From Candidatus Magasanikiibacteriota bacterium (GTDB lineage: Bacteria; Patescibacteriota; Patescibacteriia; Magasanikbacterales; 2-02-FULL-50-9b), in assembly GCA_903893485.1 (NCBI GenBank), contig CAITMK010000009.1, positions 1-54,974 on the forward strand: 54,974 nt of DNA, given 5' to 3'. Both the position numbers and the translations under genes were made by a program. Positions 17,810 to 42,738 of the stretch are shown here, in pieces. Every line of letters begins with the position of its first letter. The first letter of the stretch is position 1. The notes beneath the pieces are model-generated. The model saw only the letters and a list, made by a program, of their open reading frames with translations, searched no databases and had not been told where the DNA came from.

Positions 17810-19084
17810 TCATGGAAGCAGGGAGCGAATCCATTCCCTGACTTGTTTTACAGTTCCACTTCCCCCGCCCTTTTTTTCTGAGCGGAAAGAAGAAAATAAA
17901 TTTCCACGTTTTTGTTTGACTTCGTTTTCGGAACCCCAATCAACCAAGCCGATTGCGGTTGCGAAAGCTAAATCATTCACTTTGTCCGAGGCGCTGGTTA
18001 AATCCATTGGATAGCCGTGTGCCGCGGGCAATCGCAATTCTTTTTTTGCCATTTCGATGAATCCATCCAAGCGTGCGCCGCCACCAATAAACAAAATACC
18101 AGCCGGGAGCAACCCAGAACGCTCAACCGTACGCAATTCTTTATCAATTTTATTCAAAATTTCTTCAACGCGCGCTTCGATAATTTCTGCAACGTATTTG
18201 CGATCCACCACTTCCTGATCAGCAGCACCTAATTCAGCCAAGAAAATTTCTTCTTTGCGGCCAACGCTGCGTGGATTTACGGTGCCATATTGCACTTTCA
18301 CACGTTCTGCGACATCGATAGACGTACGCAAACCAATCGCAATATCTGACGTGATATGTTCCGAACCAATGGGCAAAATAGCGGTATGTAGCACGTCGCC
18401 TTCTTCGAAGACCGCAATACTGGTGGTGGATGCGCCGATATTAACCACCGCAACACCCAATTCTTTTTGGCGCGGGGTTGTAATTACGTCGGCGCTGGCC
18501 AGTGCAGATAAAACCAACGAATCAATTTCAACACCCGTGCGATACACCACTTTGCTTAGATTTTTAATTTGCGAAGAAACGCCTTGAATAATTTGCGCAT
18601 CAACCTCCAAGCGCACACCGGTCATGCCGACAGGATCTTTAATGCCGCCCTGGCCATCAACAGTAAATGTTTTTGGGATCACGTGAATAATTTCGTAATT
18701 CACTGGCGTTGCAACTGTGCGCGCCGCTTCAATGGCACGAGCAACATCCTCTTCGGTAATTTCGCCGTCGGATTTTGCAATTGCCACCACGCCCTTGCTT
18801 TGCTGTGACAAAATATGACTACCCGAAATACCAACGACCGCGTGTTCGATTGGTGCACCCGCTAAGCGTTCCGCGCGTTCTAAACAAGCAGAAACCGAAG
18901 ATACCGCATCATCAATGCTGGTAATAATTCCTTTGTGGATTCCCTCGGATGGAACCTCGGCGCACGCCAAAATTTGCAAAATAGATATATTGCCTTGTGC
19001 AACACGTTGGCCAACCGCAATACGAACAGCGGCAGAGCCAATATCAATGCCAGTGATTAATGGAAAATCACGAGAAAATTTCAT
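17810..19084 (-). CDS. ftsA: Cell division protein FtsA
   Basis: Actin-like ATPase: ITGIDIGSAAVR.., ..VVNIGASTTSIAVF.., ..LFIGGGARL... The start MKFSRDF at 19084 is preferred over 19102. Confidence 0.9.
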   Translation of the reverse strand: MKFSRDFPLITGIDIGSAAVRIAVGQRVAQGNISILQILACAEVPSEGIHKGIITSIDDAVSSVSACLERAERLAGAPIEHAVVGISGSHILSQQSKGVVAIAKSDGEITEEDVARAIEAARTVATPVNYEIIHVIPKTFTVDGQGGIKDPVGMTGVRLEVDAQIIQGVSSQIKNLSKVVYRTGVEIDSLVLSALASADVITTPRQKELGVAVVNIGASTTSIAVFEEGDVLHTAILPIGSEHITSDIAIGLRTSIDVAERVKVQYGTVNPRSVGRKEEIFLAELGAADQEVVDRKYVAEIIEARVEEILNKIDKELRTVERSGLLPAGILFIGGGARLDGFIEMAKKELRLPAAHGYPMDLTSASDKVNDLAFATAIGLVDWGSENEVKQKRGNLFSSFRSEKKGGGSGTVKQVREWIRSLLP

Positions 19085-19448
19085 GTGAGTATTGTACCAC
19101 AAAAGTGTTCAGGTACGGAATAAAAATAATACAAGCGATAATTACCGACACAAAACTTACCAAAAGCACCGCAGCTGCTGCCAAATCCTTGATCACGCGC
19201 GCATACGCATGCAAGCGCGGCTTTACCATATCCACAAACCGTTCCACGATACTATTTAAAATTTCAAGCACAAGTACGGCCGCAATACACATGAGTAGCG
19301 CGATTCGCTCTGACACATGCAGCGGCAACACAAACATCGCAACAAAAACTAACAACCCAACAATGCATTGCACACGAAAATTACGCTCCTCGCGCCACAC
19401 GATTCCAAGCCCTGCCATAGCTGCTTTAAAGCTTCCTAAAAAAGTCAT
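19068..19448 (-). CDS. dgkA: Diacylglycerol/undecaprenol kinase (DgkA family)
   Basis: Three TM helices with ..VLVLEILNSIVERFVD... The internal start MTFLGSFKAAMAGL at 19448 forms an ATGA overlap with the ybeY stop. The longer track ORF overlaps ybeY. Confidence 0.8.
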   Translation of the reverse strand: MTFLGSFKAAMAGLGIVWREERNFRVQCIVGLLVFVAMFVLPLHVSERIALLMCIAAVLVLEILNSIVERFVDMVKPRLHAYARVIKDLAAAAVLLVSFVSVIIACIIFIPYLNTFVVQYSHEIFS

Positions 19449-19840
19449 AGAACACCAGGTGTACTCAAATATTTTTCTTGGCGCGGCAGCATGCGGCGGC
19501 GATCCATGGCGCGAATATGATCGTATCCAAGCAGATGCAACGTCCCGTGAATTGTCATGCGCGTCAGCTCTTCCAAATAGGTCACGCCGTATTCTTTTGC
19601 TTGCTCGCGAATATACGGCAAGCACAAAATGATTTCGCCAATATATTTTTCATCAGCACCATCTTGCCCAAAAGACAACACATCGGTTGGACGATTTTTT
19701 TTTCGGTACACGCGGTTAAGTTCTTGAATTTTTGCGCGCGAGACAAAAACAACGGACGCAGAATACCCAATTTTATTTTCGAATGCTAAAACTTTTTTAA
19801 CCACGCGCTGCAACTTTTTTTTTAATTCAGATTGGTTCAT
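19445..19840 (-). CDS. ybeY: rRNA maturation endoribonuclease YbeY
   Basis: 131 aa with the H..HGTLHLLGYDH zinc motif. Confidence 0.9.
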   Translation of the reverse strand: MNQSELKKKLQRVVKKVLAFENKIGYSASVVFVSRAKIQELNRVYRKKNRPTDVLSFGQDGADEKYIGEIILCLPYIREQAKEYGVTYLEELTRMTIHGTLHLLGYDHIRAMDRRRMLPRQEKYLSTPGVL

Positions 19841-21054
19841 GGCGTTGAGGTTGGTGCCACAAGCGTTGACGTGGCGGCGGTAGATGTAGATACCACAACC
19901 GGCAACGTCGAGGTGGTGGCCATAAATGCCGGGCCCGTAGCAGTCGTCTCTGGGATTGCAATCTCCGGTGATGAGGTTGCGATTACACCAAGTGCGGTTG
20001 GTGTGCCCACACTGGTAAGCGGCAACAATTCGATTGGCGTTGCGACAGTTGCAGTTTTAAACGACTGCACCATCATAACAAAAGTCGAACGATAATTTAT
20101 TTCTTCACGAGTGCCGCCATCGTAGCGAATCAAATACACACTACCGCCATCCGTAATGAAAGCAACGGTTTTATCCGGACTCATAATGCCCGACACGTGG
20201 AACCGGTTGGTGAATGGCTGATAGGTTGCCAAAACCTCATTTGGAAAGTTCTGATGAAACCAGTCAGGAAAGGCTTGCCCCGTTGGAAATGGAAGCGCGG
20301 TAATTTCAACAAATTCACCGGACAACGCCGTGAACATTACGTCTTTATGCGTCGTTTCATCAACGGCGCGAGCAATCCAAGCGGTTGGCTGATATATAGT
20401 ATATTTATAATCTGGATTTATGTACGTACTTACCAACTGGCTGTCGATAAGTCGCGCCTGCCCCGCTGCAACCGGGCTAAAAAGATTTACCAATTCTAAA
20501 CGATCTGGATATGTATCTGAGTCAGTGTCAATCAACGTTGGATTGGTACCAAGCATTTCTTCTTCAACATCAGTCAAGCCATCACCATCGCTGTCGGCAC
20601 TATCACGAAAAACATGTGGTGGAATAAGTGCTACAGTACTTGTTGGCACAACCGGAATTTCAATGGTTGATGTTGGAGTTGAGGTTGGTGTTTCAATCAC
20701 CACCTCAGGAGTTGAGGTTGCAAGCGTTACCGCGGGCAATGTTTGTGGCGCAGGTGTCTTTGAATTATTCCAATACCAAACACCGCCAGCAATAAGCATT
20801 AAAATAACAACAATAACCGCGGCAATAATAATTATTTTATTACTAGACGTTTGCGGCGCTGGCTGAACCAAAGTTTGTTTTGGAGGTAAAATTGGCTGTC
20901 GCGGCGCTGGCATCGGCTGACGCGTAGCGACCGGCGCAGGAGTCACTTTTTGCGATTCTATTGGAGCGGCATGGGTTGCACCAAGCTCTGCAGGCGGTGC
21001 ATTTTTACCGCCATAAAAATCCATTGGGATTGTGTAGATGATTGGTTCTGCCAT
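19837..21054 (-). CDS. Single-pass membrane protein with T/P-rich stalk, TSP3-like DxDxDG calcium motifs and a C-terminal globular domain
   Basis: TM segment IIIIAAVIVVILMLIAGGVWYW. Motif [34 protein letters not shown] lies at nt 20503-20604. ATG 21054 is preferred because the track start 21066 is TTG. The stop overlaps the ybeY ATG (ATGA). Confidence 0.6.
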   Translation of the reverse strand: MAEPIIYTIPMDFYGGKNAPPAELGATHAAPIESQKVTPAPVATRQPMPAPRQPILPPKQTLVQPAPQTSSNKIIIIAAVIVVILMLIAGGVWYWNNSKTPAPQTLPAVTLATSTPEVVIETPTSTPTSTIEIPVVPTSTVALIPPHVFRDSADSDGDGLTDVEEEMLGTNPTLIDTDSDTYPDRLELVNLFSPVAAGQARLIDSQLVSTYINPDYKYTIYQPTAWIARAVDETTHKDVMFTALSGEFVEITALPFPTGQAFPDWFHQNFPNEVLATYQPFTNRFHVSGIMSPDKTVAFITDGGSVYLIRYDGGTREEINYRSTFVMMVQSFKTATVATPIELLPLTSVGTPTALGVIATSSPEIAIPETTATGPAFMATTSTLPVVVSTSTAATSTLVAPTSTP

Positions 21055-21066
21055 ACGAAAGATCAA

Positions 21067-21840
21067 TTAGTGAAGTTTGCCTGGGCCAAGTGGATTATAT
21101 CCGCTCATAACTTCTTGCCCATCCGAATATCCATCGCCATCAGTATCTTTTTTGAGCGGATCAGTAAACCAAATGTGTACTTCAACGCCATCACTGAGGC
21201 CATCACCATCCGTATCTGGATTGTGTGGATCCGTGCCGTATTTTGCTTCCTCAACATCAGTCAAACCATCATGATCGCTGTCTAAATTTTGATCAATCGC
21301 GGTTGAAGTTGCCGCTGGCGCTGCAGGAGCTGTAACTTGCGGATTATCACTTGGTACAAATTGCTTAGCCGGAGTTGACGTGGTGATAGCTGCTGCCGCA
21401 GGACCTGTTGAATCGATGTTGACTGTATTTGTAGGCTGCACTGGAGCAGCTGGAATAGTAGTTGCGGTTGTAGTAGTTGGCGCAGGAGTCGCACTTTTAT
21501 TTTTTAAAAACCACCAAGTACCCGCACCCGCACCACCGACAACGACGATAATTGCCGTTGCAAGAAAAATTCGCTTGAGCGCGGTTGGCTCATGCAAATT
21601 GCCCATATCCATGGTGTCCAAGGCTGGCATAACCGATGGCGCAATTGGCTGCAACTTCCCTGCTTCCAAAGCAGAAGGCCCAAGCGGCGTGCTTCCTGGC
21701 GAAAGGTCTGCACCGGCCTCAGACTCAAACGGATCAACCGCGTCTGCAGCGGATGGCTCTGGCATTTCAGTTGGCTGACTTGATTCATCGTCAAACATAG
21801 ATTTTAAAATTAGCGACGTGGGGCTTTTGAATACACCCAT
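21067..21840 (-). CDS. Single-pass membrane protein with acidic N-terminus, T/A/P stalk and three TSP3-like motifs
   Basis: TM segment [79 protein letters not shown] lies at nt 21112-21282. An alternative ATG is at 21798. Confidence 0.6.
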
Positions 21841-22187
21841 TGTAGATCCGTTAACACAGGATCCTTACTGTGCGCATTTTTAGGGTCAGTGTGGGAACTA
21901 TTTACCTCAAAACCATCGGATAGACCATCGCCGTCCGTATCTGGATTGTGCGGATCGGTACCAAGCGTAATTTCTTGCGCATCAGTTAATCCGTCTGCAT
22001 CAGAATCAGTGAGGAGATATAACGGCTCTCTAGCAGCTCCCGTTGCAGATACCTTGTGCAGTGTATGATAAATAAATACACCCAACGCGATGCATACCAT
22101 CGCCACAATCAGTATAGCAAATATTTTTATCCGTGACGATTGTTCTGGTGGTGTTTGTGCGACTTGAGGAATTTGTTCGTTTTCCAT
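21810..22187 (-). CDS. Small single-pass membrane protein with TSP3-like motifs
   Basis: TM segment [61 protein letters not shown] lies at nt 21879-22007. The gene starts 6 nt after the giant gene's stop. Confidence 0.6.
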
Positions 22188-22193
22188 AACGGA

Positions 22194-25100
22194 TTATTTT
22201 AATAGAAGTGTATTCACACCACCTGGAACATACTGACCTGCATACAATGAAGTCTCCGGCGACGTATCAGTATCAGAAGCACGTAACATGGTGAACAGAT
22301 GGAATTGATCCGCATTTGCCGCATCTGGCTTTAAGTTATCAGTATTGAATGTTGAAACTAATCTCCAATAATGACCATTTGCATCTGGCGTTACATTTCG
22401 ATACCATATCGCAACTTTTGCAGCCGCAATTGGCGCAGGAAGTACAGAATTCCTTGAAAGCCAAACTACGTAAGCTTGACTAGATTGTGAAGCGGCAATA
22501 GTTCCAATAAGAGTACGCGTTTTTGGAATGAAGGCGTTTGCATCATTGATGCCCACAGCAGAATCTATTTGCGCCCACCATGGCCCCTTTGTTAAACATC
22601 CATCACGCCAAGCAATAATTGCCGACGGAATTGCGGTGGCACTAACTTTTATTTCATCAATCATTTCCGCCGAACTCCAACCATTTTTTCCATTACAATA
22701 AATTGCAGGCGGAGTCGCGCCTGAATAAATTTCATTACCAGGAACACTCGCACCGATATGAAGACCCCACGTTTCAAGTGATACAGGATTTCCATTTATT
22801 GTTTGCGTGACAGATTCAATACCTGTTACAACAACACGATAATCACCCGGCAAACCATTTGGCTCAATGTCCTGATGCTGAACAGATGCATTGGTTGATA
22901 CGACAAGCTGTGGAATAGAATAAGCAAAAGCACCGCCCGTTATGTCCGACTCAATCGTTTGTCCATTTGCATATAATCTCAATTGAGGACTTACTGTAAG
23001 ACGGTACGCAGCATCTGGACTAAAACATGCGCGCACCGTTCCAATAAGCGGGCCTGTATCGAACGAATATGTTTGCGTTTGATTAACTTCGCCACTCGGG
23101 GTACTAGTTGGCATTACCAAAATCGGAAAGGCATTTTCAGTTTTCAACTGAGAATCGTATACTACCGCCGAATTTGAATCACCATAACGAATATTACCTG
23201 ACAACCGAACTGGCAACCAAGGCAAGGTTGGATCTGAGAATGCAAAAGTCACTGGAACAACTGATGTAGATGGCAGTTTAACGTATGGACTCAAATTTAA
23301 ACCAGGTGGACTATTGTGTACCGGGTCATAAACGCTCAAATGAATTCCATTTAATCGATTTGTTTGCTTTCCACAACTCAAGTATTCGTCAGGAATGCGC
23401 GCAAGATTATTCAGCAAAACACCGGTTGCAGTTCCGCCGTTAGTTACCGTTGGATCCCCTCCATTATAGGTCTCGTATTTCACATCATAAGTTCCATTTT
23501 TCACTGCAGTAATATATCCGATGTCCCATAGTTCTTTATAAGGAACATGTGAAACGCCTCCTGGGAAATGGTAATCGACATTTCCTGGTCCAAACGCAGC
23601 GACATTTGGACAATCTATCACGCCTGGAAGACAGCCCGTTGAAATTAATCTGCGTACACCAACACGCATACCAACGATAAATGGCTGAGGTTCTTTATCG
23701 ATTGTTGATGACGCCCCAATTGATGCAAATTTAAGCGGAATATTACTTACATTTAAACCTGTCGGCTGTCCAGACAAACCGTATGTAGCAATTTGTCCGT
23801 GGGTAAACAAAGCACCATTTACATTATTACTATCATCTAAGCTGAATATGTGGGCACTAAACCAGTGACTATCAAATTCACTATATACCGGAAGAATATC
23901 ACCCAAACTAGGCGCCGGTCCTTTTTCTACGAAACCCGAACAATCTGACTTACAAGCCTGCGTACCATATTGATACGTTCCCGCAGGATAACTTCCATTT
24001 GGGCCAGCCGCGCCCGCGCCAATATCATTTTTGTCACACACTTCAGTGCCATTTTTTATACCGTCACCGCAATAACCACCAGATACATATGCTTTTTTAC
24101 ATGACGTGGTGCAGTACTGACACGTATTTTTCTGACCATATGCTGGTACACATGGAATACCGTTTTGACCGCCCACTGAATATGGTTTTGTACTATTAGC
24201 TGTTGCAGGATTCGATGGATCGGTTCCGTTATCACATTCTTCACCAGTGCCCGGCGTGAATTTACCATCACCGCAACCTGGTGGCGTCGTTGGGGTACCT
24301 GGAGTCGTTTGAATTTTTTCGCAAACAGGAACACCCGCGGTAGCATTTGTCCATTTACATGGATTTGCATCAGTATGTTTATTACATTTTCGTACACAAC
24401 TATTTGCATAATCAGTTTGATCTCCGTCACAGTCCTCTCCATGATCGGCATTCACGGTACCATCGCCACAATATGGACCATACGCTTTACAATCCCAGTT
24501 GCAAGAATCAACTTGATTGATTGCATATTTTGATCCAATCGTAACCGCACCAACACCGGAATTAATTTCACACATCTCAACGCCTGGTTGAATAATGCCG
24601 TCACCACAAGCGCCAAGCGAACTGACTAAAACTTTTGATTTAACACCGCAATCTGCTGGACAATGATTATATTTTCCATTCAGCGCTTTACCATCGTCAC
24701 AAGTTTCGACACCCACTTGAATTATGCCGTCGCCACACAAAGTAACTGGCGTTTGCGGCCCATATTTACATTGACTCGTACAAACCGCTGTTGAGCTACC
24801 ATATGTGGTTGAGTCATTAATCGTTACTGTTTTACCTGGTGGATCACATTGTTCGCTGCCGCCAATCGAGCCATCGCCACAAACCGCATCTGCAACATAC
24901 GTATTGCCTGTGCAGAAAGAAAGATTTACACGGCCAGACGCCAAAACCGTATCTTTAATATAACCTGCCCAGTTATTCGTCAAAGAAGAATCCTGCTCGA
25001 ATGAAATGCCAAGTTGGTAATCAGCGCCGCTATTAATTGTTCGGTAATGATACGCTTCTGAACCAGGGTTACATTGATACTTTTGTGATTTTGCATTCCA

Positions 25101-28100
25101 GCAAGTTGCGGTATCAAAATCACCGGTGCAACCTGCATATGAATTTAATGGATCAACAACCTGCGCAATGCCAAGTTGCGACATAAAATCCGTCCATTGT
25201 GGCCAGGTACTTGCGGTTAAGCCAGGCACAAACGAACCGGTAGCAACTACTGGATATTTATTTGCAAACGCGTGGGCTTTTTCGAGTGAGCGCGTGAGCG
25301 TCGCCACATCAATCACGCGATTTGTGTCGCGAATAAATTTGGTATATGGAATTTGACAAGTAGTTGGAGTCGCTGGCATTACACATGTTCCGTTACTTGG
25401 GCAATCCGCACTTGAATAACACGAAATTGGACCTGGTGTTGATGCTGTTGAACAGAGTCCAGATGGTCCAGAATTATTACAATCCAGCGGCAGAACATTT
25501 TGTGCATCCGCAACAATTTTTGCATACACAGGATCTGTTTGAAATGAAATTTTCTTTTGAGCAGCATCATACACCATTGCCTGAAAATGAGAGCCCGCAG
25601 CATCAAAGGTAATTGAGCAACGAATCCCCGATTTGAGATTTGCATCACTTCCTGTTCCCGACAATTCATTCGTATTTACAAAAACTCTACTTGCCATCTG
25701 AACCGGTGTCAGAGGGGTTTGAGGAACCGTAGGACAGTCAGCATCCTTATTACACTGCTGAGTGCTTGCTTCTGCCCCCTGATAACAAAGTCCATCATCA
25801 ACCAAATTTGTAGACGTTTGTAAGTTTGCCAAAATCTGATCAAAAATTGCCTGAAGCTCTGGCGTTGCAGGATCAGAAAGACTGATAATAAGCATGTTGG
25901 TGTAACTGCTATTTGTGCTCTGATTTCCGTATGCAACATACAAAGTATTTGCAACACGAACCGCATCCAAACCCGCAACGACTTGCGGCGTTACATCACC
26001 CTTAAATTCTTTTTGATAATACCATTCAAGTGGTGAATAATTTTTTAAGTTCTTTTCAATGCGGAAACCAACCGCCGCGCCCGTGGTCGGATCAGTCAAA
26101 TGAAATGCGTTCAACACGGTGTACACATCAGCGGCATTTGCTGAAGTATCTGCCACAGGATCGATAATAGGAACTAAATGTGGCAATGGTTTTTGCCCCG
26201 TTGGTGTTTCACAATACCAGAATGACATGTTTTGGCCGTTCAAAATATCAGTGAGCGGTGTTTGCGCGTCTGAATACCATGGCGTATCACAAATCGCAGC
26301 CCACACTGGCAAACGGCCAACTACATCATGCCCTTTGGTGCTTGGATCAAAATAAATATCAGAAACTATTTTTGCCAAACCAGTTACAAAAGTCTTACCA
26401 TTTTGGCCGCCCGCAACCATTTCTGTTTTTTGTTGTGTCTTTTTTTCGATTGGATCAATCTTCGCAACTTTCACAAACTGAGATGCCCAATTCCACGTCC
26501 AATCATATTTACCAGAAATCGCAGCCAAAGGCACGTCTCTGTTACCCTGATGGCTAAGACCGTACGCGATCGCCTCTTCAGGCGCATTAAGTTTCTGAAA
26601 ATTTATTTGGTCAGGAAAAATCTGAACCTTATTAAGTGCACATGGATTTGGTCCGGTAGTAAATGTCCAAGATTGCCCCGTAACAGCCACGCCAGAATTA
26701 GCAAGAACCGAATAATCTGCATTCGCCGCATCGGTTGGATTAGTTTTGCTAATCATTACCTTAACTTGCGTATTAGCTGGCAACATATCGCCGACAGAAG
26801 CGGTAAGTAATGCCTCGGAAGTTGATGGATCTGCTTTACTATTTGTATGATTAACAACATCCACAGTGTAAGGCAATTTTTTATAGCAAAATCCACCACG
26901 ATAATCTCCACCAGCGCAAGTCGCTGCATCAGTTGCATAACCAACCATAAAGCTGGTAGAGCTCACCGTTGTAGTATCAACCAATTCATTAACATGTGCA
27001 GTGATGAGCGTATTTCGACAAATATCCGTGGCGTTTGGATCTGGATAAACCGTATCAAAACCAAGCTGCTTGTAGCAACACCCATCCTTTCCCACCTGCG
27101 TACCCGCTGGACACGAAATCGCACTCGCGTTGCAAACCAATTTCCATGGAACCGTATCAGATTTGCCCATGGTCTGTGCGGTAATGTTTGTTGACTGAAA
27201 TCCATTAACTACTGGACCATTTGCATTAATACTAAACGCATGGTCTGGGGTTGATGATGCAGCCGTTTCTTGCGCAACCAAAGGTACGCTTGAAGTCCAA
27301 CTCCATGTATACGCATTTGGATTTAATGGTTGTCCATCTGGATGACACGCATCCGCCTGACCAAATGCACCAACCAAAAATTGCTGCACCTGTCCTTGCG
27401 CTTGCGCAATTGCGTCAACTGGTTTTACATTTACATGATCGATCGCACAAGCTGCGGTGCCCGTAATAAACGTCCACGTAAAATACTGAGCATTCGTTGC
27501 GGGATAATTGAAGTCTGCAAATGGAAGACCCGCGTCAGACAGTACGCCACCTTTCAAAACTAATCGATATTTTCGCTGTGGATCAAAATTCTGTGATGCA
27601 AAAAGTACATGATGATTATCGTTTGCATCGATTGTTGGGACTAGCGCATTTTTGAGATCACTATCTGCAAATGCACAATCATCGGTTGTAAGATTTGTTG
27701 TCGCAGGACATTCGTACAAAAATAATTTATTTTGGAGCGAATCAAGATTTATATTTGTACTAAAGGTGATGTCAACCAACGAATTTAAACAAACACCCGA
27801 TGTTGAACCCGGACAATCAAGCGGATCATACGAGGTAATATGCGGATTGGTAAACGCAACACTAAGAAGCGAAGAGCCTGTAATATTTTGTGCAGTTGCC
27901 AAAATTGAAAGTGGGCTATCCCCGGTTTCTTTGTATGCTGCAATATATTGTGCCCAGCCCGTATCAGACCATTTATTATCAGGGTCAACAGCAGCATAAC
28001 CCGCGTGTGCCAAATCAATACCCCAATTAAATGTAAAGGCGTTTGGATCGAGATACACACATTTATCAGCGCCAAATCCTTGTGCAATCCAGGCGAGCGG

Positions 28101-31100
28101 TGTCCAACTGCCATTTAATAGCTGCTGCACGGTTCCATAATCCGTTGTGGTGTAATTGCCAGGAGACAGTTCGATTGAAGCAAGTTTACACGCAGCATCG
28201 TTGTCGATAAGCGTTGCAGCGGTCTTAAAGGTAAAACAATATCCAACGCCAACAGGACAGCCCTTCATTGGAACCATCATTTTGCCGTTCACACCAACGC
28301 CCTTCGTGTTGGTACTCACTTCAGCAATATATGTTGTATTCAAGAATAGCGGCGCTTTTGGCTCAATGGTGTACTGATACACGTTATCATCCGCATTCAT
28401 GGTTGTCGGTGTAAAATCAGTTGTTGCGGTTGCCACTGCGGTATCACATTCATGATCTTTTTTGGTACCCGTACATTGAAAAAGTGAGAACGTAAAAGGC
28501 GATTCTGTTTTATCTGCGTTCAGCAAAACAACCGGTTGATTAAACGTTACCGATACCAATGACGTACGACAAACAGGCGTCGCCGCAGACCACATAATTG
28601 ATGGGCTTGGACTACGAATTCCATCGATGGAACACTGCTCGTAAATTCGTGGTGGACCCGGATTAATTACTAATGTTCCCGTGCCGGTTTTCAAAGCACC
28701 TTGTTGCATGGTTGATGCAGTGATATCAATTGACGCACCATCTTTCGTTGGTGTTTTCGCATCCAAAAGGGTTGTTGCAGCTGTTGGATTTAATGCTGCT
28801 GCGATCAAAAAATTAGAATCAACCGCTTGCGAAGGTTTCCACCCCCACTGATACACCGATGGATCCAGAATCTGACAATGATCAACTGGATATGGCACTG
28901 GCGACCAATACACTCTATTCTGTTTTGCATCAACGATCGTGCCCAAATTTTGCGTAACAAAACTTGGTGGATCGATTCCTACTTTATCAATCAAACAAGG
29001 TTCGTTAGTTGGGCCCGTGCTAAACGTAAAACAATACACAAAACCCGAACCTGGTTTACAGGTACTGAGTTGATCTGCTGGTGCACGTACTGGTAAGCCA
29101 CTATCAATACCCGCGATCTGATTAGAAATAGAAACGCGATAAGTTGAAGAAATTGCTAAATTTTGTGGCGTTACAAAAATACTTGAATACGCGCTTGTGC
29201 TGTATGCACTTACTTTCAAATTTTTCAGCGAAACCAATGTTGGATCCGTTTGCGTACAAGGATCAGAGATATCCCCGGTACATTTTTCAACAATGATGCT
29301 GCTTTTTGATCCTGAAAAAACATTTACTGTTTTAGGATCAATATTTTCAGTAAATTTAATGGCAATTTGCGCATTGTTACAAGCGCTGACTGTACTAGGC
29401 CAAACCGATGAAGGCGATGGTGATGGAATTGAATTTGTTGCCGTGGCTAAAGTATTACACTCTTCTTTGATTTCTGGTGGCTGCGAAACCGCGCACGAAT
29501 CGCCGGTTGAAAAACACCACAAAAATGCTGCGGAAACTTTTTTGCTTGCGCTTATACATGATGTACCACACGAACCATCCGCGCAACAAATATTGCCGGT
29601 TTTGCAAGCGCCCGCAACCACGCGGCAATCTGAAACTGCAAAATAAACAGAGTTACTACAAGTACTTGGGTTAGTATCACAAATATTTTTTGTTGCTTTT
29701 CCATTTATAACGAGGGATAAACGTACTCCACCACTCACTGCGCTTGCTGGTACCATGATGTTAACCTTGCCATCTGTCCAAATAGAACCTGTTTTTGGCG
29801 CCAATCCAACTACATGATCAGAAAAAATAGCAACACCCGGAGTTGTCCCAAAATGCTCACCAAAAAATGAAATTACAAGTGAACCATTCGCCGGGCCATT
29901 GTCCGCTTTAATTGCACAAACCTGTGGACCTGGTTTATCGGTATTTACTGTGAAATTCTGGATGTTTGAACCGGTTTTATTGCCATATGGATATACTCTA
30001 ATTCCATATTTGGCAACTGGAATATTTGGAACCTTAACAATAATTTGTTTATTCCCCCAAAAACCGGCTGCACATTGTGCAGGAAAATTAGTATCAGCCA
30101 CAACTTGTTGATCCGTTGGATTTCCGGATCCATCAAGTACTACAAAATAAACTTTATTTGGCACCGTACCAAAACCAGTACCCGTAAGCGTCACGTAAGT
30201 GCCAACACCCCCAGCTGCTGGTGCGACAGAATTCAAACTTAATACATTATCAGGATTCGCAGGCCCTTTCCCCGTGGTAGCAGTTGACGATGCAGTCACC
30301 AAAAATTCTAATGGATTTGTCGTAATACCTTTAATAACTGCCTGCACATTAATAAATCCAGGATCCATGTCTGGCAAAGTGGCGGTAATAGTATTTGGCG
30401 TAATTTGTGCCCACGTGGCATCATTTGCAGAATATCCACCAAAAAATAATTTACGATCTACACTGGGCGATGAAATATCATCAGTGCCTAAAAGAGAAAC
30501 CTTGGTACCAGAAAAACCAGAATCTGGAATCAATCCACAGATACCAGGGCGTACTACGTCGGTAATTTTAAATTGCTGGAGATATAAACCGGTTTGGTTG
30601 TCGGTTGTGTCAATCGATGTTGCGGAATTTTTAATCTGAATCGCACCGCTTTTAGCACCATCTGGAACGCGCACCACCACCTGATCATTTGACCAGCCAG
30701 CATCACAAGCCAAAGGCGCTTCAACATCATCAGTATCTGTTTTTGGATCACCTAAAAAGGTCACGGATCCAAAATTCGTTCCAAAACCATCGCCCGAAAT
30801 AGTTATGTAAGAACCTGGCGCACCATCTTGAGGCTGAACATCTTTGATAATCGGCGAACTTGAGCAAACATGTTTTACTGGATCACAAAAACCGTTTCCA
30901 CCCGCACATTGCGATGAAGCTGTACAAGCTGAATTCGCACACAATCCACATTCACCATTAGCAGCACTACAATCAATTGCAATTTCAGTTGGATCCGTTA
31001 CGCCGTTTACCGATTGAACTTTATTGAAACAATGTGCAGCATAAGAAGTTGTATGAATTTGCGCTTTGCCCAAATTACCTGCCACATCCATCGCGTCAAC

Positions 31101-32264
31101 TTCAATGACATGCGCCGTACCTGGTGCATCGCCCTTCGTGTTGAATTTCTGTGAAATAATATAAAGTTGCTGACCCGTATTCCCCGCTGGATAAACTGGC
31201 TGAACTGTTTCCAGCAATTTTCCATCAACCAAAATTCTACCATATGCAATACCGTCGTTATCAGAAAGCAAAGCTTTTACTGGGACAAAAGATTCTGATG
31301 GAATTTTACCATTGTCTGGCGGAGTCGTATTTGAAATGTTTGGTGCGGTGGTATCGATATCAGTACCAGCCGTAAAGGTAAATTTACAATTAACGCCAGT
31401 GCATACCAAAATTTTACCCGTTACCGCAGCGTGAATTGAAGTTGATAAACCGCCAACTAATGAAACATTATATTCATCTGGGTCAAAACAATGCAACGAA
31501 TCATTCGGCGCTGGACACGACTTTGAAGGAATAAATGTAATCGTATCAGCATCAACCGTAACTGCTCCGTCAACTTTCGTACCAGCTTTATTTGTGACTA
31601 TGAAATTACTGCCGTAAGAAACCGTTGATTCGTCAACAGCCTGATTAAAAACAACATTTACGCGTATATTTGCAAATTTTTGAAGTCCTCTTGGCGATCC
31701 AAAATTAACCGTAAGAGCGCCAAAACCACTACCTCCACCACCACCCAACCCAGTGCCACCACCAATACCAACATCAGTAGTACCTCCACCACCATTCGCG
31801 AGCGGTGACCCTGTGGCGGTTAAAAAAGATCGAATAATAAATTCTGAAATACCAAACGAAGAAAGTACAATAACCAAACCAATAACACCGTTGGTCAAAA
31901 TTCGTTTTGCTTTTTCAGCCGTTTCTTCGGAACCACCTGCCGTCATGTAGGTAAAACCGCCGTAAATAATTACGCCGATTACAATAACGCCCATGAGGCT
32001 AAGGAAAATACGAATGATGTTCGCAATGATCACCGTAAATGGCGTGCTGCCAAGCCCAGATGTTTGCTGAATCGTTTGCAAACCAGTATCGCCCGGCTGA
32101 ATTTGATTGGTGCCGGAAACAGCAGGTGCAGCCTGACCGCCAAGAACTGGAGCCGTATTTTGTGCATAAACTACCGATGGCGCGTGTGTTGGGCCAAAAA
32201 ATAATCCGCCAAGCAGTACTAAACCAAAGCTGATTTTTACAAACAAATTACGGAGTTTTGCCAT
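22194..32264 (-). CDS. Giant (3356 aa) surface protein: signal peptide + VirB2/TrbC-pilin-like two-helix module + Gly linker + Ig-like/IPT-TIG/Cys-rich repeats + C-terminal beta-rich region
   Basis: Uninterrupted 10 kb ORF.
- aa 1-150 match the N-terminus of the upstream 648-aa protein.
- GGGGTTDVGIGGGTGLGGGGGSG forms a linker.
- Four IPT/TIG-like units (..GSYITISGDGFG.., ..GTYVTLTGTGFG.., ..SLVISFFGEHFG..) lie at about nt 29650-30865.
- Four ~270-aa supermodules follow.
- Six CGDG..C(D/E) repeats are present. Confidence 0.85.
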   Translation of the reverse strand: MAKLRNLFVKISFGLVLLGGLFFGPTHAPSVVYAQNTAPVLGGQAAPAVSGTNQIQPGDTGLQTIQQTSGLGSTPFTVIIANIIRIFLSLMGVIVIGVIIYGGFTYMTAGGSEETAEKAKRILTNGVIGLVIVLSSFGISEFIIRSFLTATGSPLANGGGGTTDVGIGGGTGLGGGGGSGFGALTVNFGSPRGLQKFANIRVNVVFNQAVDESTVSYGSNFIVTNKAGTKVDGAVTVDADTITFIPSKSCPAPNDSLHCFDPDEYNVSLVGGLSTSIHAAVTGKILVCTGVNCKFTFTAGTDIDTTAPNISNTTPPDNGKIPSESFVPVKALLSDNDGIAYGRILVDGKLLETVQPVYPAGNTGQQLYIISQKFNTKGDAPGTAHVIEVDAMDVAGNLGKAQIHTTSYAAHCFNKVQSVNGVTDPTEIAIDCSAANGECGLCANSACTASSQCAGGNGFCDPVKHVCSSSPIIKDVQPQDGAPGSYITISGDGFGTNFGSVTFLGDPKTDTDDVEAPLACDAGWSNDQVVVRVPDGAKSGAIQIKNSATSIDTTDNQTGLYLQQFKITDVVRPGICGLIPDSGFSGTKVSLLGTDDISSPSVDRKLFFGGYSANDATWAQITPNTITATLPDMDPGFINVQAVIKGITTNPLEFLVTASSTATTGKGPANPDNVLSLNSVAPAAGGVGTYVTLTGTGFGTVPNKVYFVVLDGSGNPTDQQVVADTNFPAQCAAGFWGNKQIIVKVPNIPVAKYGIRVYPYGNKTGSNIQNFTVNTDKPGPQVCAIKADNGPANGSLVISFFGEHFGTTPGVAIFSDHVVGLAPKTGSIWTDGKVNIMVPASAVSGGVRLSLVINGKATKNICDTNPSTCSNSVYFAVSDCRVVAGACKTGNICCADGSCGTSCISASKKVSAAFLWCFSTGDSCAVSQPPEIKEECNTLATATNSIPSPSPSSVWPSTVSACNNAQIAIKFTENIDPKTVNVFSGSKSSIIVEKCTGDISDPCTQTDPTLVSLKNLKVSAYSTSAYSSIFVTPQNLAISSTYRVSISNQIAGIDSGLPVRAPADQLSTCKPGSGFVYCFTFSTGPTNEPCLIDKVGIDPPSFVTQNLGTIVDAKQNRVYWSPVPYPVDHCQILDPSVYQWGWKPSQAVDSNFLIAAALNPTAATTLLDAKTPTKDGASIDITASTMQQGALKTGTGTLVINPGPPRIYEQCSIDGIRSPSPSIMWSAATPVCRTSLVSVTFNQPVVLLNADKTESPFTFSLFQCTGTKKDHECDTAVATATTDFTPTTMNADDNVYQYTIEPKAPLFLNTTYIAEVSTNTKGVGVNGKMMVPMKGCPVGVGYCFTFKTAATLIDNDAACKLASIELSPGNYTTTDYGTVQQLLNGSWTPLAWIAQGFGADKCVYLDPNAFTFNWGIDLAHAGYAAVDPDNKWSDTGWAQYIAAYKETGDSPLSILATAQNITGSSLLSVAFTNPHITSYDPLDCPGSTSGVCLNSLVDITFSTNINLDSLQNKLFLYECPATTNLTTDDCAFADSDLKNALVPTIDANDNHHVLFASQNFDPQRKYRLVLKGGVLSDAGLPFADFNYPATNAQYFTWTFITGTAACAIDHVNVKPVDAIAQAQGQVQQFLVGAFGQADACHPDGQPLNPNAYTWSWTSSVPLVAQETAASSTPDHAFSINANGPVVNGFQSTNITAQTMGKSDTVPWKLVCNASAISCPAGTQVGKDGCCYKQLGFDTVYPDPNATDICRNTLITAHVNELVDTTTVSSTSFMVGYATDAATCAGGDYRGGFCYKKLPYTVDVVNHTNSKADPSTSEALLTASVGDMLPANTQVKVMISKTNPTDAANADYSVLANSGVAVTGQSWTFTTGPNPCALNKVQIFPDQINFQKLNAPEEAIAYGLSHQGNRDVPLAAISGKYDWTWNWASQFVKVAKIDPIEKKTQQKTEMVAGGQNGKTFVTGLAKIVSDIYFDPSTKGHDVVGRLPVWAAICDTPWYSDAQTPLTDILNGQNMSFWYCETPTGQKPLPHLVPIIDPVADTSANAADVYTVLNAFHLTDPTTGAAVGFRIEKNLKNYSPLEWYYQKEFKGDVTPQVVAGLDAVRVANTLYVAYGNQSTNSSYTNMLIISLSDPATPELQAIFDQILANLQTSTNLVDDGLCYQGAEASTQQCNKDADCPTVPQTPLTPVQMASRVFVNTNELSGTGSDANLKSGIRCSITFDAAGSHFQAMVYDAAQKKISFQTDPVYAKIVADAQNVLPLDCNNSGPSGLCSTASTPGPISCYSSADCPSNGTCVMPATPTTCQIPYTKFIRDTNRVIDVATLTRSLEKAHAFANKYPVVATGSFVPGLTASTWPQWTDFMSQLGIAQVVDPLNSYAGCTGDFDTATCWNAKSQKYQCNPGSEAYHYRTINSGADYQLGISFEQDSSLTNNWAGYIKDTVLASGRVNLSFCTGNTYVADAVCGDGSIGGSEQCDPPGKTVTINDSTTYGSSTAVCTSQCKYGPQTPVTLCGDGIIQVGVETCDDGKALNGKYNHCPADCGVKSKVLVSSLGACGDGIIQPGVEMCEINSGVGAVTIGSKYAINQVDSCNWDCKAYGPYCGDGTVNADHGEDCDGDQTDYANSCVRKCNKHTDANPCKWTNATAGVPVCEKIQTTPGTPTTPPGCGDGKFTPGTGEECDNGTDPSNPATANSTKPYSVGGQNGIPCVPAYGQKNTCQYCTTSCKKAYVSGGYCGDGIKNGTEVCDKNDIGAGAAGPNGSYPAGTYQYGTQACKSDCSGFVEKGPAPSLGDILPVYSEFDSHWFSAHIFSLDDSNNVNGALFTHGQIATYGLSGQPTGLNVSNIPLKFASIGASSTIDKEPQPFIVGMRVGVRRLISTGCLPGVIDCPNVAAFGPGNVDYHFPGGVSHVPYKELWDIGYITAVKNGTYDVKYETYNGGDPTVTNGGTATGVLLNNLARIPDEYLSCGKQTNRLNGIHLSVYDPVHNSPPGLNLSPYVKLPSTSVVPVTFAFSDPTLPWLPVRLSGNIRYGDSNSAVVYDSQLKTENAFPILVMPTSTPSGEVNQTQTYSFDTGPLIGTVRACFSPDAAYRLTVSPQLRLYANGQTIESDITGGAFAYSIPQLVVSTNASVQHQDIEPNGLPGDYRVVVTGIESVTQTINGNPVSLETWGLHIGASVPGNEIYSGATPPAIYCNGKNGWSSAEMIDEIKVSATAIPSAIIAWRDGCLTKGPWWAQIDSAVGINDANAFIPKTRTLIGTIAASQSSQAYVVWLSRNSVLPAPIAAAKVAIWYRNVTPDANGHYWRLVSTFNTDNLKPDAANADQFHLFTMLRASDTDTSPETSLYAGQYVPGGVNTLLLK
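24030..24890 (-). repeat. Six cysteine-rich CGDGxxxxxxExCD repeats inside the giant ORF
   Basis: The repeats are CGDGSIGGSEQCDPPG, CGDGIIQVGVETCDDG, CGDGIIQPGVEMCE, CGDGTVNADHGEDCDGD, CGDGKFTPGTGEECDNG and CGDGIKNGTEVCDKN. They resemble the Myxococcus cysteine-rich repeat class. Confidence 0.7.
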
Positions 32265-34194
32265 ATTCTAATAAATTGCAATTTTCATTCGATGAAACAC
32301 CATTACAGCAGGTATAAGTCCCCGTATCGGTTGTTGGATCTGTGTACGTACATTGTAACCCAATTTGCGAATTTTGACCCGAAGCCAAAAAACAATTCTG
32401 ATACACATCCTGCACACTTGAAGGCAACGCTGGCGCATACGATTGACTCTTCGCAAAAGAAACATGTTTAATATTCAATTTAGTAACTGAATTTGTTACA
32501 CCCGCAACTGTTGTTGTCTGATCAACAGACTCTTTCCAAAAACCGGCCTGCGCTCGAGGATTTTGCGCGACCAATCCAACGCCGCTAAACGAACTTGCCT
32601 TCATTAAGGAATCAAATGTTGCACTAACTGCACTATCGGCGGTAAATGGATTCGTTGCATCTTTTCCATTTGCGCCAAAAAGCGGTTCAACAGATGTAAT
32701 TTTTGGATCGGTAATTTTGGTAGCATCCGTCGTGTTGAATGAGAAATAAAAATCATCAACCGGGCTCCCCGATGGCTTGCCGCCGGTAGTACTCCATGGT
32801 GTTTTTGCATTTTCACCACCACCATCAAGCGCGTTGCCCGCAGTATCGGTGATTCCCTGCAACGATAATTTTGGATTTACCTGTGCATTCACCCCTGGCT
32901 GTGCAAGCACACCAGACAATGCGCGCACTTCTAATTTTTCGCTTGCTGGCAAGCAAAAAATCTTTTGACCACACGCATTGGTGCCACATTCCGCAGCGGT
33001 TGTAAAATCAATAATATTAAATCCCCCGCCAGCACGCCACACACCAGACACAAACGAACCATCTGGGTTTGCAACGCGAATATTTTTAAACTGCTTTGAA
33101 TGTCCATCGTATTCCCCAACCGCTGAAGCAAGATTAACCGGCTCCGAAAAAGTTACTTGCACAGTAATATTGCGCGCATAGGTACCACCTGCCGTTGGAA
33201 TTACTGAAATAATACGAGGCGGCGTTAAATCGAGTTCCGTGCTAACCGTAAATTTCCATGAATATCCACCGCTAAATCCAGAAAAAATACTTTGGCCTGC
33301 AGGAGTTACGCGTTTAATATCTGGCGAAAGTTCCACGGTATATGGCGTTTGTGCTGTTGCACTTCCTAAAAATGGAATCGGATCGTAAACCACAACCGTT
33401 GAGTCCGCACCTTCGGAGCCAATAGTGACCCACACATCTGTTGGCTTGAGCGCGGTATTGCGACCCTCAGCAGTTGCATAGATCAAAAAGGTTGAACCAT
33501 TCACTGGGCCACTTACCAAACGCTTTATTTCTTTGCCATTTGCATCGGTTGTTGTTTTGTATACCGCATCTGGTGATGTTGCATCAATCACACTTGTTGG
33601 ATCGATTGGAAATTTGTATACAACTTGAATCATTTTGTTGCGAGGAACGCCAACTGCATCACGAGCTGGATCGTGCGATTCGATAACGCGGCCAAGCGCT
33701 GAGCCTCCGTCGTAGCCAGAAAGTAAATCAACGCCACCCGAACCATTCGATCCAACAAGTTCAGTTCCACCAGTTAATCCACCGGCGCCAAACAATCGGC
33801 TCATGATATACGAGGTAATCGCGTAGGATGAAGCAATAATCACCAAACCAATCACGGTATTTTTTAAAACGTCTTTTGCCTGCGTCACCTGCTTTTCATC
33901 GCCAGCAGCGGTCATCCACAAATAGCCGCCATAAATAACAAAGCTGATTACCACCGCGCCAAGTAATCCAAAAAGAATATTTATGATGCGGCCAATAATA
34001 ACGCCCAATGATGAGCTGCCTAAACCAGCGGTTGAATTAACTGAATTTAAATTTTGAAGCGCGTCAGTTGCAGGAGCAGTCGTTTGCGCATACACCGACG
34101 AAGCGCCGTGAAAAAACAAAAAACCGACCGCGCACATGAGCGCTGCCGTAAGTAGAAGATTTTTTTTGTAAGTGGAAAAAAGAACGAAGCGCAT
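32248..34194 (-). CDS. 648-aa surface protein: signal peptide + pilin-like two-helix module + Gly linker + Ig-like (SbsA/Big_5-type) domains
   Basis: The N-terminus ..SSVYAQTTAP..GLGSSSLGVIIGRIINILFGLLGAVVISFVIYGGYLWMTAAGDEKQVTQAKDVLKNTVIGLVIIASSYAITSYIMSRLF is paralogous to the giant protein's N-terminus. ..LDLTPPRIISVIPTAGGTYARNITVQVTFSEPV.. is Ig-like. The stop overlaps the giant gene's start by 17 nt. Confidence 0.8.
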   Translation of the reverse strand: MRFVLFSTYKKNLLLTAALMCAVGFLFFHGASSVYAQTTAPATDALQNLNSVNSTAGLGSSSLGVIIGRIINILFGLLGAVVISFVIYGGYLWMTAAGDEKQVTQAKDVLKNTVIGLVIIASSYAITSYIMSRLFGAGGLTGGTELVGSNGSGGVDLLSGYDGGSALGRVIESHDPARDAVGVPRNKMIQVVYKFPIDPTSVIDATSPDAVYKTTTDANGKEIKRLVSGPVNGSTFLIYATAEGRNTALKPTDVWVTIGSEGADSTVVVYDPIPFLGSATAQTPYTVELSPDIKRVTPAGQSIFSGFSGGYSWKFTVSTELDLTPPRIISVIPTAGGTYARNITVQVTFSEPVNLASAVGEYDGHSKQFKNIRVANPDGSFVSGVWRAGGGFNIIDFTTAAECGTNACGQKIFCLPASEKLEVRALSGVLAQPGVNAQVNPKLSLQGITDTAGNALDGGGENAKTPWSTTGGKPSGSPVDDFYFSFNTTDATKITDPKITSVEPLFGANGKDATNPFTADSAVSATFDSLMKASSFSGVGLVAQNPRAQAGFWKESVDQTTTVAGVTNSVTKLNIKHVSFAKSQSYAPALPSSVQDVYQNCFLASGQNSQIGLQCTYTDPTTDTGTYTCCNGVSSNENCNLLEYGKTP

Positions 34195-34961: not shown

Positions 34962-34991
34962 ATTTTAACATGTTTTGGGCTAACACGTCAA
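34962..34991 (-). promoter_or_regulatory. rpsU promoter
   Basis: The minus strand reads TTGACG-18 nt-TAAAAT, about 40 nt upstream of the GTG start. Confidence 0.4.
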
Positions 34992-36433: not shown

Positions 36434-37051
36434 TTAAGGCTCTGTGTGATTGTATACGTCGCCGGCTAAATAACTGATACGATCCAAGGGAAATCCGCGG
36501 AAAAGTGCTCGGCCAACAAGGTCAACTCGCTTAACCGGGCCAAACCGGCGCGAGTCGAAACTGGCACCACGATTGTCTCCCATTACATAGTATTCATCTG
36601 AGCTGAGTGTGACATCTATATCGCCGTCTGTCAAGACGGTTGGGCCCAAATACGCCGATTCATCGAGGTATTCCCCGTCCGGATGTTGCGAGTTGAAAAT
36701 CCGTATGCGACCTCCCCGAATGATGAGATGTTCCCCTGGAAGCCCAATGATACGCTTGAGAAAATATTCTTTGTCCACGTCGCCATGGTAATGCATAACG
36801 ATTACCTGCCCGCGGTGCGGCTGACCCAAATGAAAACTAAGCTCATCAATGATCAAATATTCTTTGTCCAGATAGGTTGGCACCATTGACGTGCCGCTGA
36901 CCACAAATGGTTTAAAAATAAAATAACGAATTGCCACAACCGCAAAAGCGCCAATAATCAAGACTTTAAAAAGTTCCTTAAAAAAAAGTGCGAGCGGATG
37001 TTTTTGATCCCCTTCTTCAGCAAGCAAATTGTCTGATACAAAGTCATCCAT
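36434..37051 (-). CDS. lepB: Signal peptidase I
   Basis: N-terminal TM segment, ..VSGTSMVPTY.. (catalytic Ser box), ..KRIIGLPGE.. and ..GDNRGASFDSR.. Confidence 0.88.
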   Translation of the reverse strand: MDDFVSDNLLAEEGDQKHPLALFFKELFKVLIIGAFAVVAIRYFIFKPFVVSGTSMVPTYLDKEYLIIDELSFHLGQPHRGQVIVMHYHGDVDKEYFLKRIIGLPGEHLIIRGGRIRIFNSQHPDGEYLDESAYLGPTVLTDGDIDVTLSSDEYYVMGDNRGASFDSRRFGPVKRVDLVGRALFRGFPLDRISYLAGDVYNHTEP

Positions 37052-38269: not shown

Positions 38270-38330
38270 AGGAAGAACGTTTTGAAAGTTTAAAAAACTT
38301 GCCGATAGTATATCACACAAAAATTGTATA

Positions 38331-41238: not shown

Positions 41239-42738
<1,500 letters not shown>

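Follow-up and report, generated by a model that had tools for sequence, protein, structure and literature searches.

What is encoded by five adjacent genes, the first two of which open with a conjugative-type pilin module and the second of which runs on for 3356 codons? The question is raised by contig CAITMK010000009.1 of a Candidatus Magasanikiibacteriota bacterium (assembly GCA_903893485.1), whose 54,974 nucleotides (nt) we refer to as the window, and in which five co-directional genes, here called g1 to g5, span positions 19837-34194 on the minus strand. We propose that modular pilins of the conjugative type (VirB2/TrbC-like, PF18895) form the basis of a surface-display apparatus specified by this locus, a reading to which we give about an even chance. 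The genes, with the lengths of their products in amino acids (aa), are the following:

32248-34194, minus strand: g1, 648 aa
22194-32264, minus strand: g2, the giant, 3356 aa
21810-22187, minus strand: g3, 125 aa
21067-21840 (257 aa) or 21067-21798 (243 aa), minus strand: g4, with two candidate ATG starts
19837-21066 (TTG start, 409 aa) or 19837-21054 (ATG start, 405 aa), minus strand: g5

These reading frames lie far beyond chance, as there is one frame of 3356 codons with four neighbours and all of them have conserved homologues. Read from the DNA, the junctions are those that an earlier note on this sequence had described: g1 overlaps g2 by 17 nt, a 6-nt gap separates g2 from g3, g3 and g4 either overlap by 31 nt or stand 11 nt apart depending on the g4 start, 12 nt lead from g4 to the ATG of g5, and the TGA of g5 overlaps the ATG of ybeY in a common ATGA. 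For g4 the second ATG (243 aa, 11-nt gap) is the likely true start, because its homologues begin with the motif MF[DE]D.

Central to our proposal is how g1 and g2 begin. Both N-terminal modules match the Pfam family T4SS_pilin (PF18895), for which the curated threshold is 26.6 bits:

33805..34017, minus strand: pilin module of g1, residues 60-130, matching PF18895 positions 2-71 of 71
31839..32048, minus strand: pilin module of g2, residues 73-142, matching PF18895 positions 2-70 of 71

The score of g1 is 41.7 bits, and that of g2 is 35.8 bits in the whole protein and 42.8 bits for the isolated module. Hydropathy places hydrophobic segments at residues 12-32, 60-96 and 113-132 of g1 and at residues 6-26, 73-111 and 121-148 of g2, while the AlphaFold2 (AF2) model of g1 has hairpin helices at 63-95 and 100-138 with a confidence (pLDDT) of ~90, followed by a disordered Gly-rich linker. 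A signal-peptide site between VYA and Q lies after A36 in g1, a near-invariant residue, and after A34 in g2. Both proteins are thus predicted, as had been supposed from the bare sequence, to start with a Sec signal peptide followed by two hydrophobic helices that are joined by a short polar loop. The type IV pilin family N_methyl is absent from the Pfam matches, and these Sec-type N-termini show no prepilin peptidase motif (G, the cleavage point, then F/M xxxE).

Are these hairpins pilin units, or are they plain signal anchors? The similarity between g1 and g2 is confined to the first ~148 residues, at 39% identity, and the isolated g2 module matches stand-alone PF18895 pilins with identities of up to 51-59% (the search gave 14 short proteins). 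Such stand-alone pilins, of 123-162 aa, align with g1 and g2 end to end, from the signal peptide through helix 2, and end at the very point where the two longer proteins pass into their Gly-rich linker. PF18895 is matched in all 18 aligned modules and relatives, three of which also match the TrbC/VirB2 family PF04956, at 4.9e-6. In an alignment of 73 g1 sequences, ~14 of the ~47 invariant or near-invariant columns fall within residues 57-119, and the hairpin is the most conserved part of the protein; the transmembrane (TM) helix of the g5 family has no conserved columns. Because the module is conserved and the g5 helix is not, the hairpin appears to be under pilin-like constraint, which would suit a specific interface rather than a generic greasy anchor, and by profile score and alignment the N-terminal modules are genuine PF18895 pilin units, not plain signal anchors. 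One further family, the Mbov_0395 pilin-like conjugal family of NCBIfam, stayed below threshold (29 bits versus 40), and a Foldseek search with the full g1 model was dominated by Ig domains, so that it is silent on the hairpin.

What do these modules carry? In g1 the Sec signal peptide, the two-helix pilin module and the Gly-rich linker precede a chain of Ig-like domains of the Big_5 type, and a Cys-rich cap closes the C-terminus; T4SS_pilin and Big_5 are the Pfam matches. The 102 homologues detected are ~600-750 aa long, have the same architecture and come, where a source is named, from Uhrbacteria, Magasanikbacteria or the 'Patescibacteria group'. The AF2 model (pLDDT 83.8) shows all-beta domains after the hairpin, which Foldseek matched to Ig-like folds in tandem, as in LdtMt2, SbsC and titin, but to no enzyme or toxin; the g1 family profile gave negative or trivial results against PDB sequences.

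In g2, with a mass of 353 kDa and an isoelectric point of 4.9, the signal peptide, pilin module and Gly-rich linker lead into a non-repetitive ectodomain, within which no internal sequence repeats were found. Segment-wise Pfam searches resolved this ectodomain into about five Big_5 domains, three TIG domains and six Cys-rich repeats of the form CGDG..ExCD at residues 2462-2745, found no family in residues 1950-2400 and 2750-3356, and gave no enzyme or toxin family; comparison with PDB sequences was again negative or trivial. The Ig-like, TIG and Cys-rich ectodomains that had been suggested for the two head proteins are in this way borne out by Pfam, by Foldseek and by the CGDG repeats.

The most telling feature of the giant lies towards its C-terminus, where two parts can be distinguished:

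23925..26087, minus strand: distal conserved part of g2 including the CGDG repeats, residues ~2060-2780, a separate secreted protein in other lineages
22197..23924, minus strand: lineage-specific distal tip of g2, residues ~2781-3356, ~575 aa

Residues 1-~2750 are covered by most of the 47 complete giant homologues and the last ~600 residues by none of them, and the alignment with the closest full relative (L003, one of 85 related loci, L001-L085, that a tblastn survey covered) shows 35-38% identity and ends at residue 2781. When 34 complete giants are compared, their C-terminal 500 aa fall into at least 10 mutually unrelated groups, and residues 501-1000 into a single one. These alignments divide the giant into a stalk that is conserved and a tip that varies like an exchangeable cassette. 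In nine lineages (L031, L036, L040, L052, L064, L072, L075, L076, L081), moreover, a separate open reading frame (ORF) after a shorter giant aligns with g2 residues ~2060-2790, the giant itself being 1544-2726 aa long where a single giant ORF is callable. Of these separate ORFs, those in L036, L064 and L076 are complete, with 881-900 aa, and the others run off the locus end (at least 648-1195 aa); their N-termini resemble signal peptides. Either, then, an anchored stalk and a distal Cys-rich protein were fused in the giant of the window, or one such protein was split in the nine lineages, and because the two are encoded as separate proteins in the split lineages, they must associate non-covalently there.

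The other three genes had been described as encoding single-pass membrane proteins whose sole recognisable content is thrombospondin type 3 (TSP3) repeats, and the first part of this description stands. By hydropathy, g3, g4 and g5 each have one TM helix with acidic TSP3 repeats on its C-terminal side, and they are predicted to be type-II membrane proteins whose repeats would bind calcium. Against TSP3_bac (PF18884; repeat DxDxDGxxDxxE, threshold 25 bits), g3 scores 62 bits, g4 76 bits and g5 23.9 bits, which is just under the threshold; despite this score the TSP3 aspartates of g5 are invariant in its family alignment. The smallest of the three, g3, has a short cytoplasmic N-terminus, a TM helix at 16-46 and two TSP3 repeats, and is variable in its occurrence, being found in L003, L004, L063 and L076 and missing from L018, L038 and L039. 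Read from the second ATG, g4 has its N-terminus in the cytoplasm, and its TM helix is joined to three TSP3 repeats by a linker rich in T, P and A; it has kept its place between the giant and g5 wherever a locus extends far enough to show it.

TSP3 repeats are not all that g5 holds, and here the earlier description falls short. Its order is a cytoplasmic motif, the TM helix, an S/T/P linker, the TSP3 repeats, a domain of PsbP/Mog1 fold and an S/T/P tail, with P10, D154, D156, D158, W226 and Y311 as invariant positions of the family alignment. The C-terminal domain is assigned from structure prediction: AF2 gave a pLDDT above 94 for residues 150-335, Foldseek matched this model to cyanobacterial PsbP (2xb3, E 3.3e-5, target TM-score 0.55) and also to Tsi3, and the g5 profile found PsbP among PDB sequences at E 0.014. 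The TSP3 part gave a weak match to Bap (7c7r, 2.5e-5). We disregarded matches of the g5 profile to DotF/IcmG, FliL and EmrA, which were weak and covered the TM helix and the low-complexity linker, and the NCBIfam models for CglD, MtsD, FliL and lanmodulin were far below their cut-offs and touched only TSP3 or TM segments.

On the cytoplasmic side, g4 homologues carry the motifs MF[DE]D and [ED]D[IMP]F (21720-21798 in the window), and the g5 family carries I-H/Y-T-I/M-P-x-x-F-Y/L-G-G with an invariant proline (21000-21054 in the window). Such motifs look like docking peptides for some cytoplasmic partner. A link to cell division was considered in view of FtsA and FtsZ, which lie 2-3 genes downstream, and of the acidic-aromatic character of the g4 motifs, and nothing beyond adjacency spoke for it. 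All five products are acidic, and none of them has an LPxTG or an RTX (repeats-in-toxin, GGxGxD) motif.

How widely is this arrangement kept? In a scan of GTDB species representatives, which gave at least 560 matching stretches, hundreds of genomes of ultra-small Patescibacteria proved to hold the cluster; we examined the best 80 loci, which belong to Uhr-, Magasanik-, Komeili- and Falkowbacteria of the class ABY1. The order LepB-HisRS-YqeY-g1-giant holds in nearly all of these 80 loci, and past short giants it continues with g4-g5-YbeY-DAGK-FtsA. A hidden Markov model of the pilin module was positive for g1 in 80 of 80 loci and for the following giant in 74, in which the giant measures 1400 to >3500 aa and carries the module at its N-terminus; in the six others the ORF is missing or cut by a short contig end (L044, L062, L073) or the module went undetected (L036, L064). 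Gene order and the link to ybeY, which the earlier note had wanted checked in relatives, are therefore kept across the class, with g5 and ybeY meeting within 0-4 nt in L003, L004, L038 and L039. The genes that bound this order in the window are:

19445-19840, minus strand: ybeY
36434-37051, minus strand: lepB

In almost every locus, synteny with the pilin pair extends to this LepB-type signal peptidase gene. Among the GTDB records that carry the locus (L006-L085), many bear the title 'uncultured Gammaproteobacteria bacterium' and isolated ones name 'Kapaibacterium' or 'Udaeobacter'; these titles look like placeholder or wrong taxonomy for bulk-submitted metagenome-assembled genomes.

Pilin modules of this family also occur in related settings. 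In three loci a third small pilin of 123-165 aa lies between g1 and the giant (L041 11734-12120, L047 7071-7439, L066 8753-9247), and in other Patescibacteria the closest stand-alone relatives of the g2 module belong to arrays that comprise 8-9 small PF18895 pilins. Two such small-pilin arrays (L086 5436-11312 and L088 2389-7632) are headed by a pilin-module protein of 840 or 646 aa in which the module is internal (residues 315-377 and 215-277), so that extracellular extensions would lie on both sides of it; next to these arrays lie an SBP_bac_1 gene, YebC and RuvC, and VirB4 was not found within 10 kb of them. One long pilin-module protein accompanied by small pilins appears to be a recurring patescibacterial layout, and the ABY1 locus looks like a version of it in which the long members dominate. 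A comparison with PHROGs gave nothing relevant and no sign of a phage tail or fibre.

VirB2-like arrays of 2-11 tandem divergent pilin genes are described for Patescibacteria in the searchable text of Wang et al. 2023 (PMC10633639) and Quinonero-Coronel et al. 2025 (PMC12102498). In the literature as far as its text is open to searching, such an array is reported as essential in Saccharibacteria (Southlakia epibionticum), genes with a type IV secretion system (T4SS) pilin domain are reported as highly expressed in host-attached Paceibacteria, and a recent review treats a pilus in these monoderms as a possibility only. The statement of the earlier note that the window contains no T4SS ATPase is right for the window only: three genomes that bear the locus, Magasanikbacteria RIFOXYD1_FULL_40_23, Komeilibacteria RIFOXYD1_FULL_37_29 and Greene0416_36, are listed as ABY1 and VirB4-positive (Table S1, PMC12102498).

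Taken together, these observations suggest the following mechanism. Both g1 and g2 would be exported by Sec, cut after VYA and placed in the membrane as a hairpin of two helices whose ends both lie outside, and the C-terminus, facing outward, would carry the ectodomain of each protein on the flexible Gly-rich linker. F-type pili likewise expose both ends of their pilin, and F-pilin tolerates short peptides fused to its C-terminus. The conserved hairpin would then dock with, or join at low stoichiometry, a VirB2-like pilin or T4SS assembly encoded elsewhere in the genome. The giant would contribute its conserved, non-repetitive Ig/TIG/Cys-rich stalk, possibly extending on the order of 100 nm, and the exchangeable lineage-specific tip would bind a partner or host surface. 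Meanwhile g4 and g5, and g3 where it is present, would push their acidic TSP3 repeats through the wall on S/T/P-rich spacers, with the PsbP-fold domain of g5 as a protein-binding part carried through the wall in the same way, and g3-g5 may form a calcium-dependent base or scaffold for the stalk. Judged by its genes, the locus is a good candidate for the device by which host-dependent cells hold other cells, and host attachment, the role that the earlier note had in mind, would fit a mechanism of this kind.

Several points weigh against this proposal. The profile built from the 18 modules matched no solved pilin among PDB sequences, and the link to VirB2/TrbC therefore rests on Pfam membership, on the PF04956 co-matches and on the published structure-based annotation of Saccharibacteria. 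Among window ORFs of at least 150 aa, Pfam found no sortase, pilus or T4SS ATPase, secretin or SLH domain, which agrees with what the earlier note had said about these components and about S-layer anchors; in the 85 related loci no T4SS gene was seen within 10 kb, in a survey whose queries held no T4SS component, and the called genes of L001-L005 list none. To our knowledge, a pilus has never been demonstrated for any patescibacterial T4SS. With an appendage of 0.5-3.2 thousand residues (kaa) on each subunit, g1 and g2 cannot pack as a major pilin, so that any co-polymerisation would have to be sparse or restricted to a tip or base. The high conservation of g1 is unlike that of typical fast-evolving adhesins. 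A HMMER search with the g2 tip against 1.84 billion representative proteins gave 0 matches and did not recover the query's own cluster either, a result which means only that no other representative has a detectable relative. Calcium binding and every protein contact in the mechanism are predictions, and synteny by itself is no proof of joint function, as the housekeeping neighbours share it.

Which other explanations could account for the same locus? The one that survives best is a constitutive envelope coat or S-layer-like scaffold, in which g1 and g2, held by their hairpins and calcium-braced by the TSP3 proteins, would serve integrity or shape with neither a pilus nor partner recognition. 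A core-genome locus found class-wide amid housekeeping and division genes would suit a coat, as would the collinear and conserved course of g1 and of g2 residues 1-2780, but the cassette-like, lineage-specific tip is hard to explain in a purely structural lattice. Although the g1 ectodomain resembles Ig-domain chains including that of the S-layer protein SbsC, no SLH or other known S-layer anchor is present, and a non-repetitive protein of 353 kDa is atypical of lattice formers. The acidity of all five products is as seen in calcium-dependent surface layers, and T4SS genes were not found nearby; the hairpin, however, is a conserved pilin unit that is common to stand-alone pilins and arrays. 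We regard a coat as unlikely, yet as an explanation that deserves to be taken seriously.

A second alternative questions whether the five genes form a functional unit at all, and it draws on two claims of the earlier note that our results do not support: that the locus is a self-contained module and that the tight coupling of its genes is a special feature. Only 8 nt separate the YqeY stop from the g1 ATG, and the frames of ybeY, DAGK and FtsA, as listed, overlap too, so that the ybeY-DAGK and DAGK-FtsA junctions are equally tight and close packing is not peculiar to g1-g5. LepB, HisRS, YqeY, YbeY, DAGK and FtsA are as syntenic as g1-g5, g3 comes and goes, and a promoter and terminator scan of the region stayed at background level, with a total of promoter matches no higher than in shuffled sequence. 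The genes might on this account encode independent surface proteins inherited as a block, with the hairpin as a convenient pilin-derived double-pass anchor. Yet the conservation of the pilin module far exceeds that of an ordinary anchor, g4 and g5 always come after the giant, each with a cytoplasmic motif of its own and both with TSP3 repeats, and where g2 is split into an anchored stalk and a separately secreted distal protein, non-covalent assembly is implied for at least those parts. We consider such a mere block of neighbours improbable.

Very improbable, lastly, is a release of the ectodomains as free or wall-bound matrix or predation factors, with the pilin module as an export or retention handle and the linker cut: it could appeal to the disordered Gly-rich linker directly after helix 2, to the LepB-type peptidase gene conserved two genes upstream and to the precedent of TraF, a LepB-like peptidase that processes the RP4 pilin TrbC, but LepB is a housekeeping enzyme, the g1 alignment has zero invariant columns between 120 and 167 and no conserved cleavage motif in the linker, and g1 has no enzyme or toxin fold and g2 no such family.

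Returning to a surface-display apparatus built on modular pilins, we may ask whether it belongs to a system that is already known. The earlier note held that no system of this composition had been described, which is too strong where the pilins are concerned. Patescibacterial VirB2-like arrays are of the same pilin family, with a signal peptide and two-helix hairpin and with tandem divergent genes (as g1 and g2, at 39%), and they share with the locus the phylum, a chromosomal position, the lack of a relaxase and the presence of VirB4 in related genomes. Under the definition of Quinonero-Coronel 2025 (at least two PF18895/PF04956 genes in tandem or one gene apart), g1 and g2 form an array. In contrast to these two proteins with ectodomains of ~500 and ~3200 aa, however, VirB2 is noted in the searchable text on the published arrays as small and often located in a T4SS cluster, and the g1-g2 locus further differs from them in lying far from T4SS genes and in having TSP3/PsbP membrane proteins downstream.

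With VirB2/TrbC/TraA pilins in general, g1 and g2 share the predicted Sec signal, a pair of hydrophobic helices with a short polar loop between them, and outside termini, and some close relatives of the module also match PF04956. These pilins are nevertheless major subunits of 70-130 aa that polymerise with phospholipid and are in some cases cyclised, whereas g1 has 648 and g2 3356 aa, and both fall outside the classical major conjugative pilin class on size and on T4SS gene neighbourhood. The remark that nothing comparable is described does hold for the rest of the composition: as far as the searchable open-access literature shows, pilin units fused to ectodomains of 0.5-3.2 kaa find no mention, nor do TSP3/PsbP partners, and their combination would be new.

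Among characterised adhesin systems the locus found no match, in line with the earlier note, although several offer partial likenesses. The nearest functional analogy would be with the modular type IV pilins PilB and PilC of Streptococcus sanguinis (PMC8179133), where an assembly pilin module with a C-terminal adhesive graft is displayed as a minor subunit; that pilin superfamily is, however, unrelated, with a class III signal peptide, a prepilin peptidase and type IV pilus ATPases, and its grafts have ~100-300 aa rather than 3 kaa. LapA/MpIBP-type RTX adhesins and Bap are likewise very large acidic, Ig-rich surface proteins that involve calcium and a distal ligand-binding region, but the proteins of our locus have no RTX nonapeptides, type I secretion signal, repeated stalk or LPxTG, are anchored by a pilin-type N-terminus and have their calcium repeats on separate partner proteins. 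Bacterial TSP3 calcium repeats are known from the surface adhesion and cohesion proteins CglD and MtsD of Myxococcus, with which g3-g5 have only the repeats in common (32-39 bits versus cut-offs of 400-800), being small type-II proteins that lack both a VWA domain and a lipoprotein signal.

The C-terminal domain of g5 resembles the PsbP/Mog1/DcrB/Tsi3 fold in being a predicted extracytoplasmic alpha/beta sandwich, typically a protein-binding scaffold, but identity is 8-14%, no photosystem or type VI secretion system is involved, and in g5 the domain shares its chain with a TM helix, TSP3 repeats and an S/T/P spacer. Sortase-anchored Gram-positive adhesins and pili (PrgB, Spa) are not matched, with no LPxTG in g1-g5 and no sortase in the window, and neither are S-layer proteins with known anchors, as no SLH or other anchor family was found in g1-g5 or in the g2 segments. 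The tested features thus rule out the sortase, RTX, SLH and type IV pilin classes.

Around the locus, the window holds only housekeeping genes, one 16S rRNA gene and two tRNAs. HisRS and YqeY are separated by the one upstream gap of any size, and within it lies the coding strand's best promoter-like site, from which a transcript of YqeY, g1 and the genes beyond might start:

34962..34991, minus strand: putative sigma-70-like site, TTGACG-18-TAAAAT with TG, a consensus match only

Downstream of ybeY, the 185-aa DAGK ORF as listed (19068-19625, minus strand, GTG start) overlaps ybeY by ~180 nt; as its homologues in L003 and L004 have 119-125 aa and start at the ybeY stop, the real DAGK start is probably internal. 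On the other side of the locus, two predicted exported beta-rich proteins are encoded just upstream of lepB, one of 401 aa (37142-38347, minus strand) and one of 616 aa (39265-41115, minus strand), for neither of which a Pfam or PHROG family was matched. A relative of the former precedes LepB in L001 as well. The latter, with a signal peptide and PPV-rich repeats, lies between a full-length 16S rRNA gene (41239-42739, minus strand, 1400 bits) and tRNA-Ile (38367-38443, minus strand), and the rRNA operon thus appears to be interrupted or unlinked by a surface-protein gene. Both exported proteins may be part of the same surface repertoire as the locus.

What could this mean for the biology of these bacteria? 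How most Patescibacteria find and hold their hosts has been answered only for a few cultured Saccharibacteria, and the role of the unusual patescibacterial T4SS with its VirB2-like pilins is open too; the locus is a concrete, class-wide candidate that ties this pilin family to very large surface proteins. More tentatively, and with doubts that outweigh our confidence, we suggest that ABY1 cells build a conjugative-type (VirB2-like) filament or membrane platform with pilin-adhesin fusions, in which the exchangeable C-terminal cassette of a ~350-kDa stalk sets the host range. If this were true, these would be the first T4SS-type pilins to act as modular carriers of giant adhesins, and the cassette would be a host-specificity determinant that can be read from sequence for an uncultivated class. 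A conserved stalk with a variable tip can be compared across metagenomes and could predict partner specificity, while g1, the g2 tip and the PsbP-like domain of g5 offer defined targets for antibodies, proteomics and cryo-electron tomography in enrichment cultures. The 'modular pilin' idea developed for type IV pili would thereby be extended to an unrelated, conjugative pilin family.

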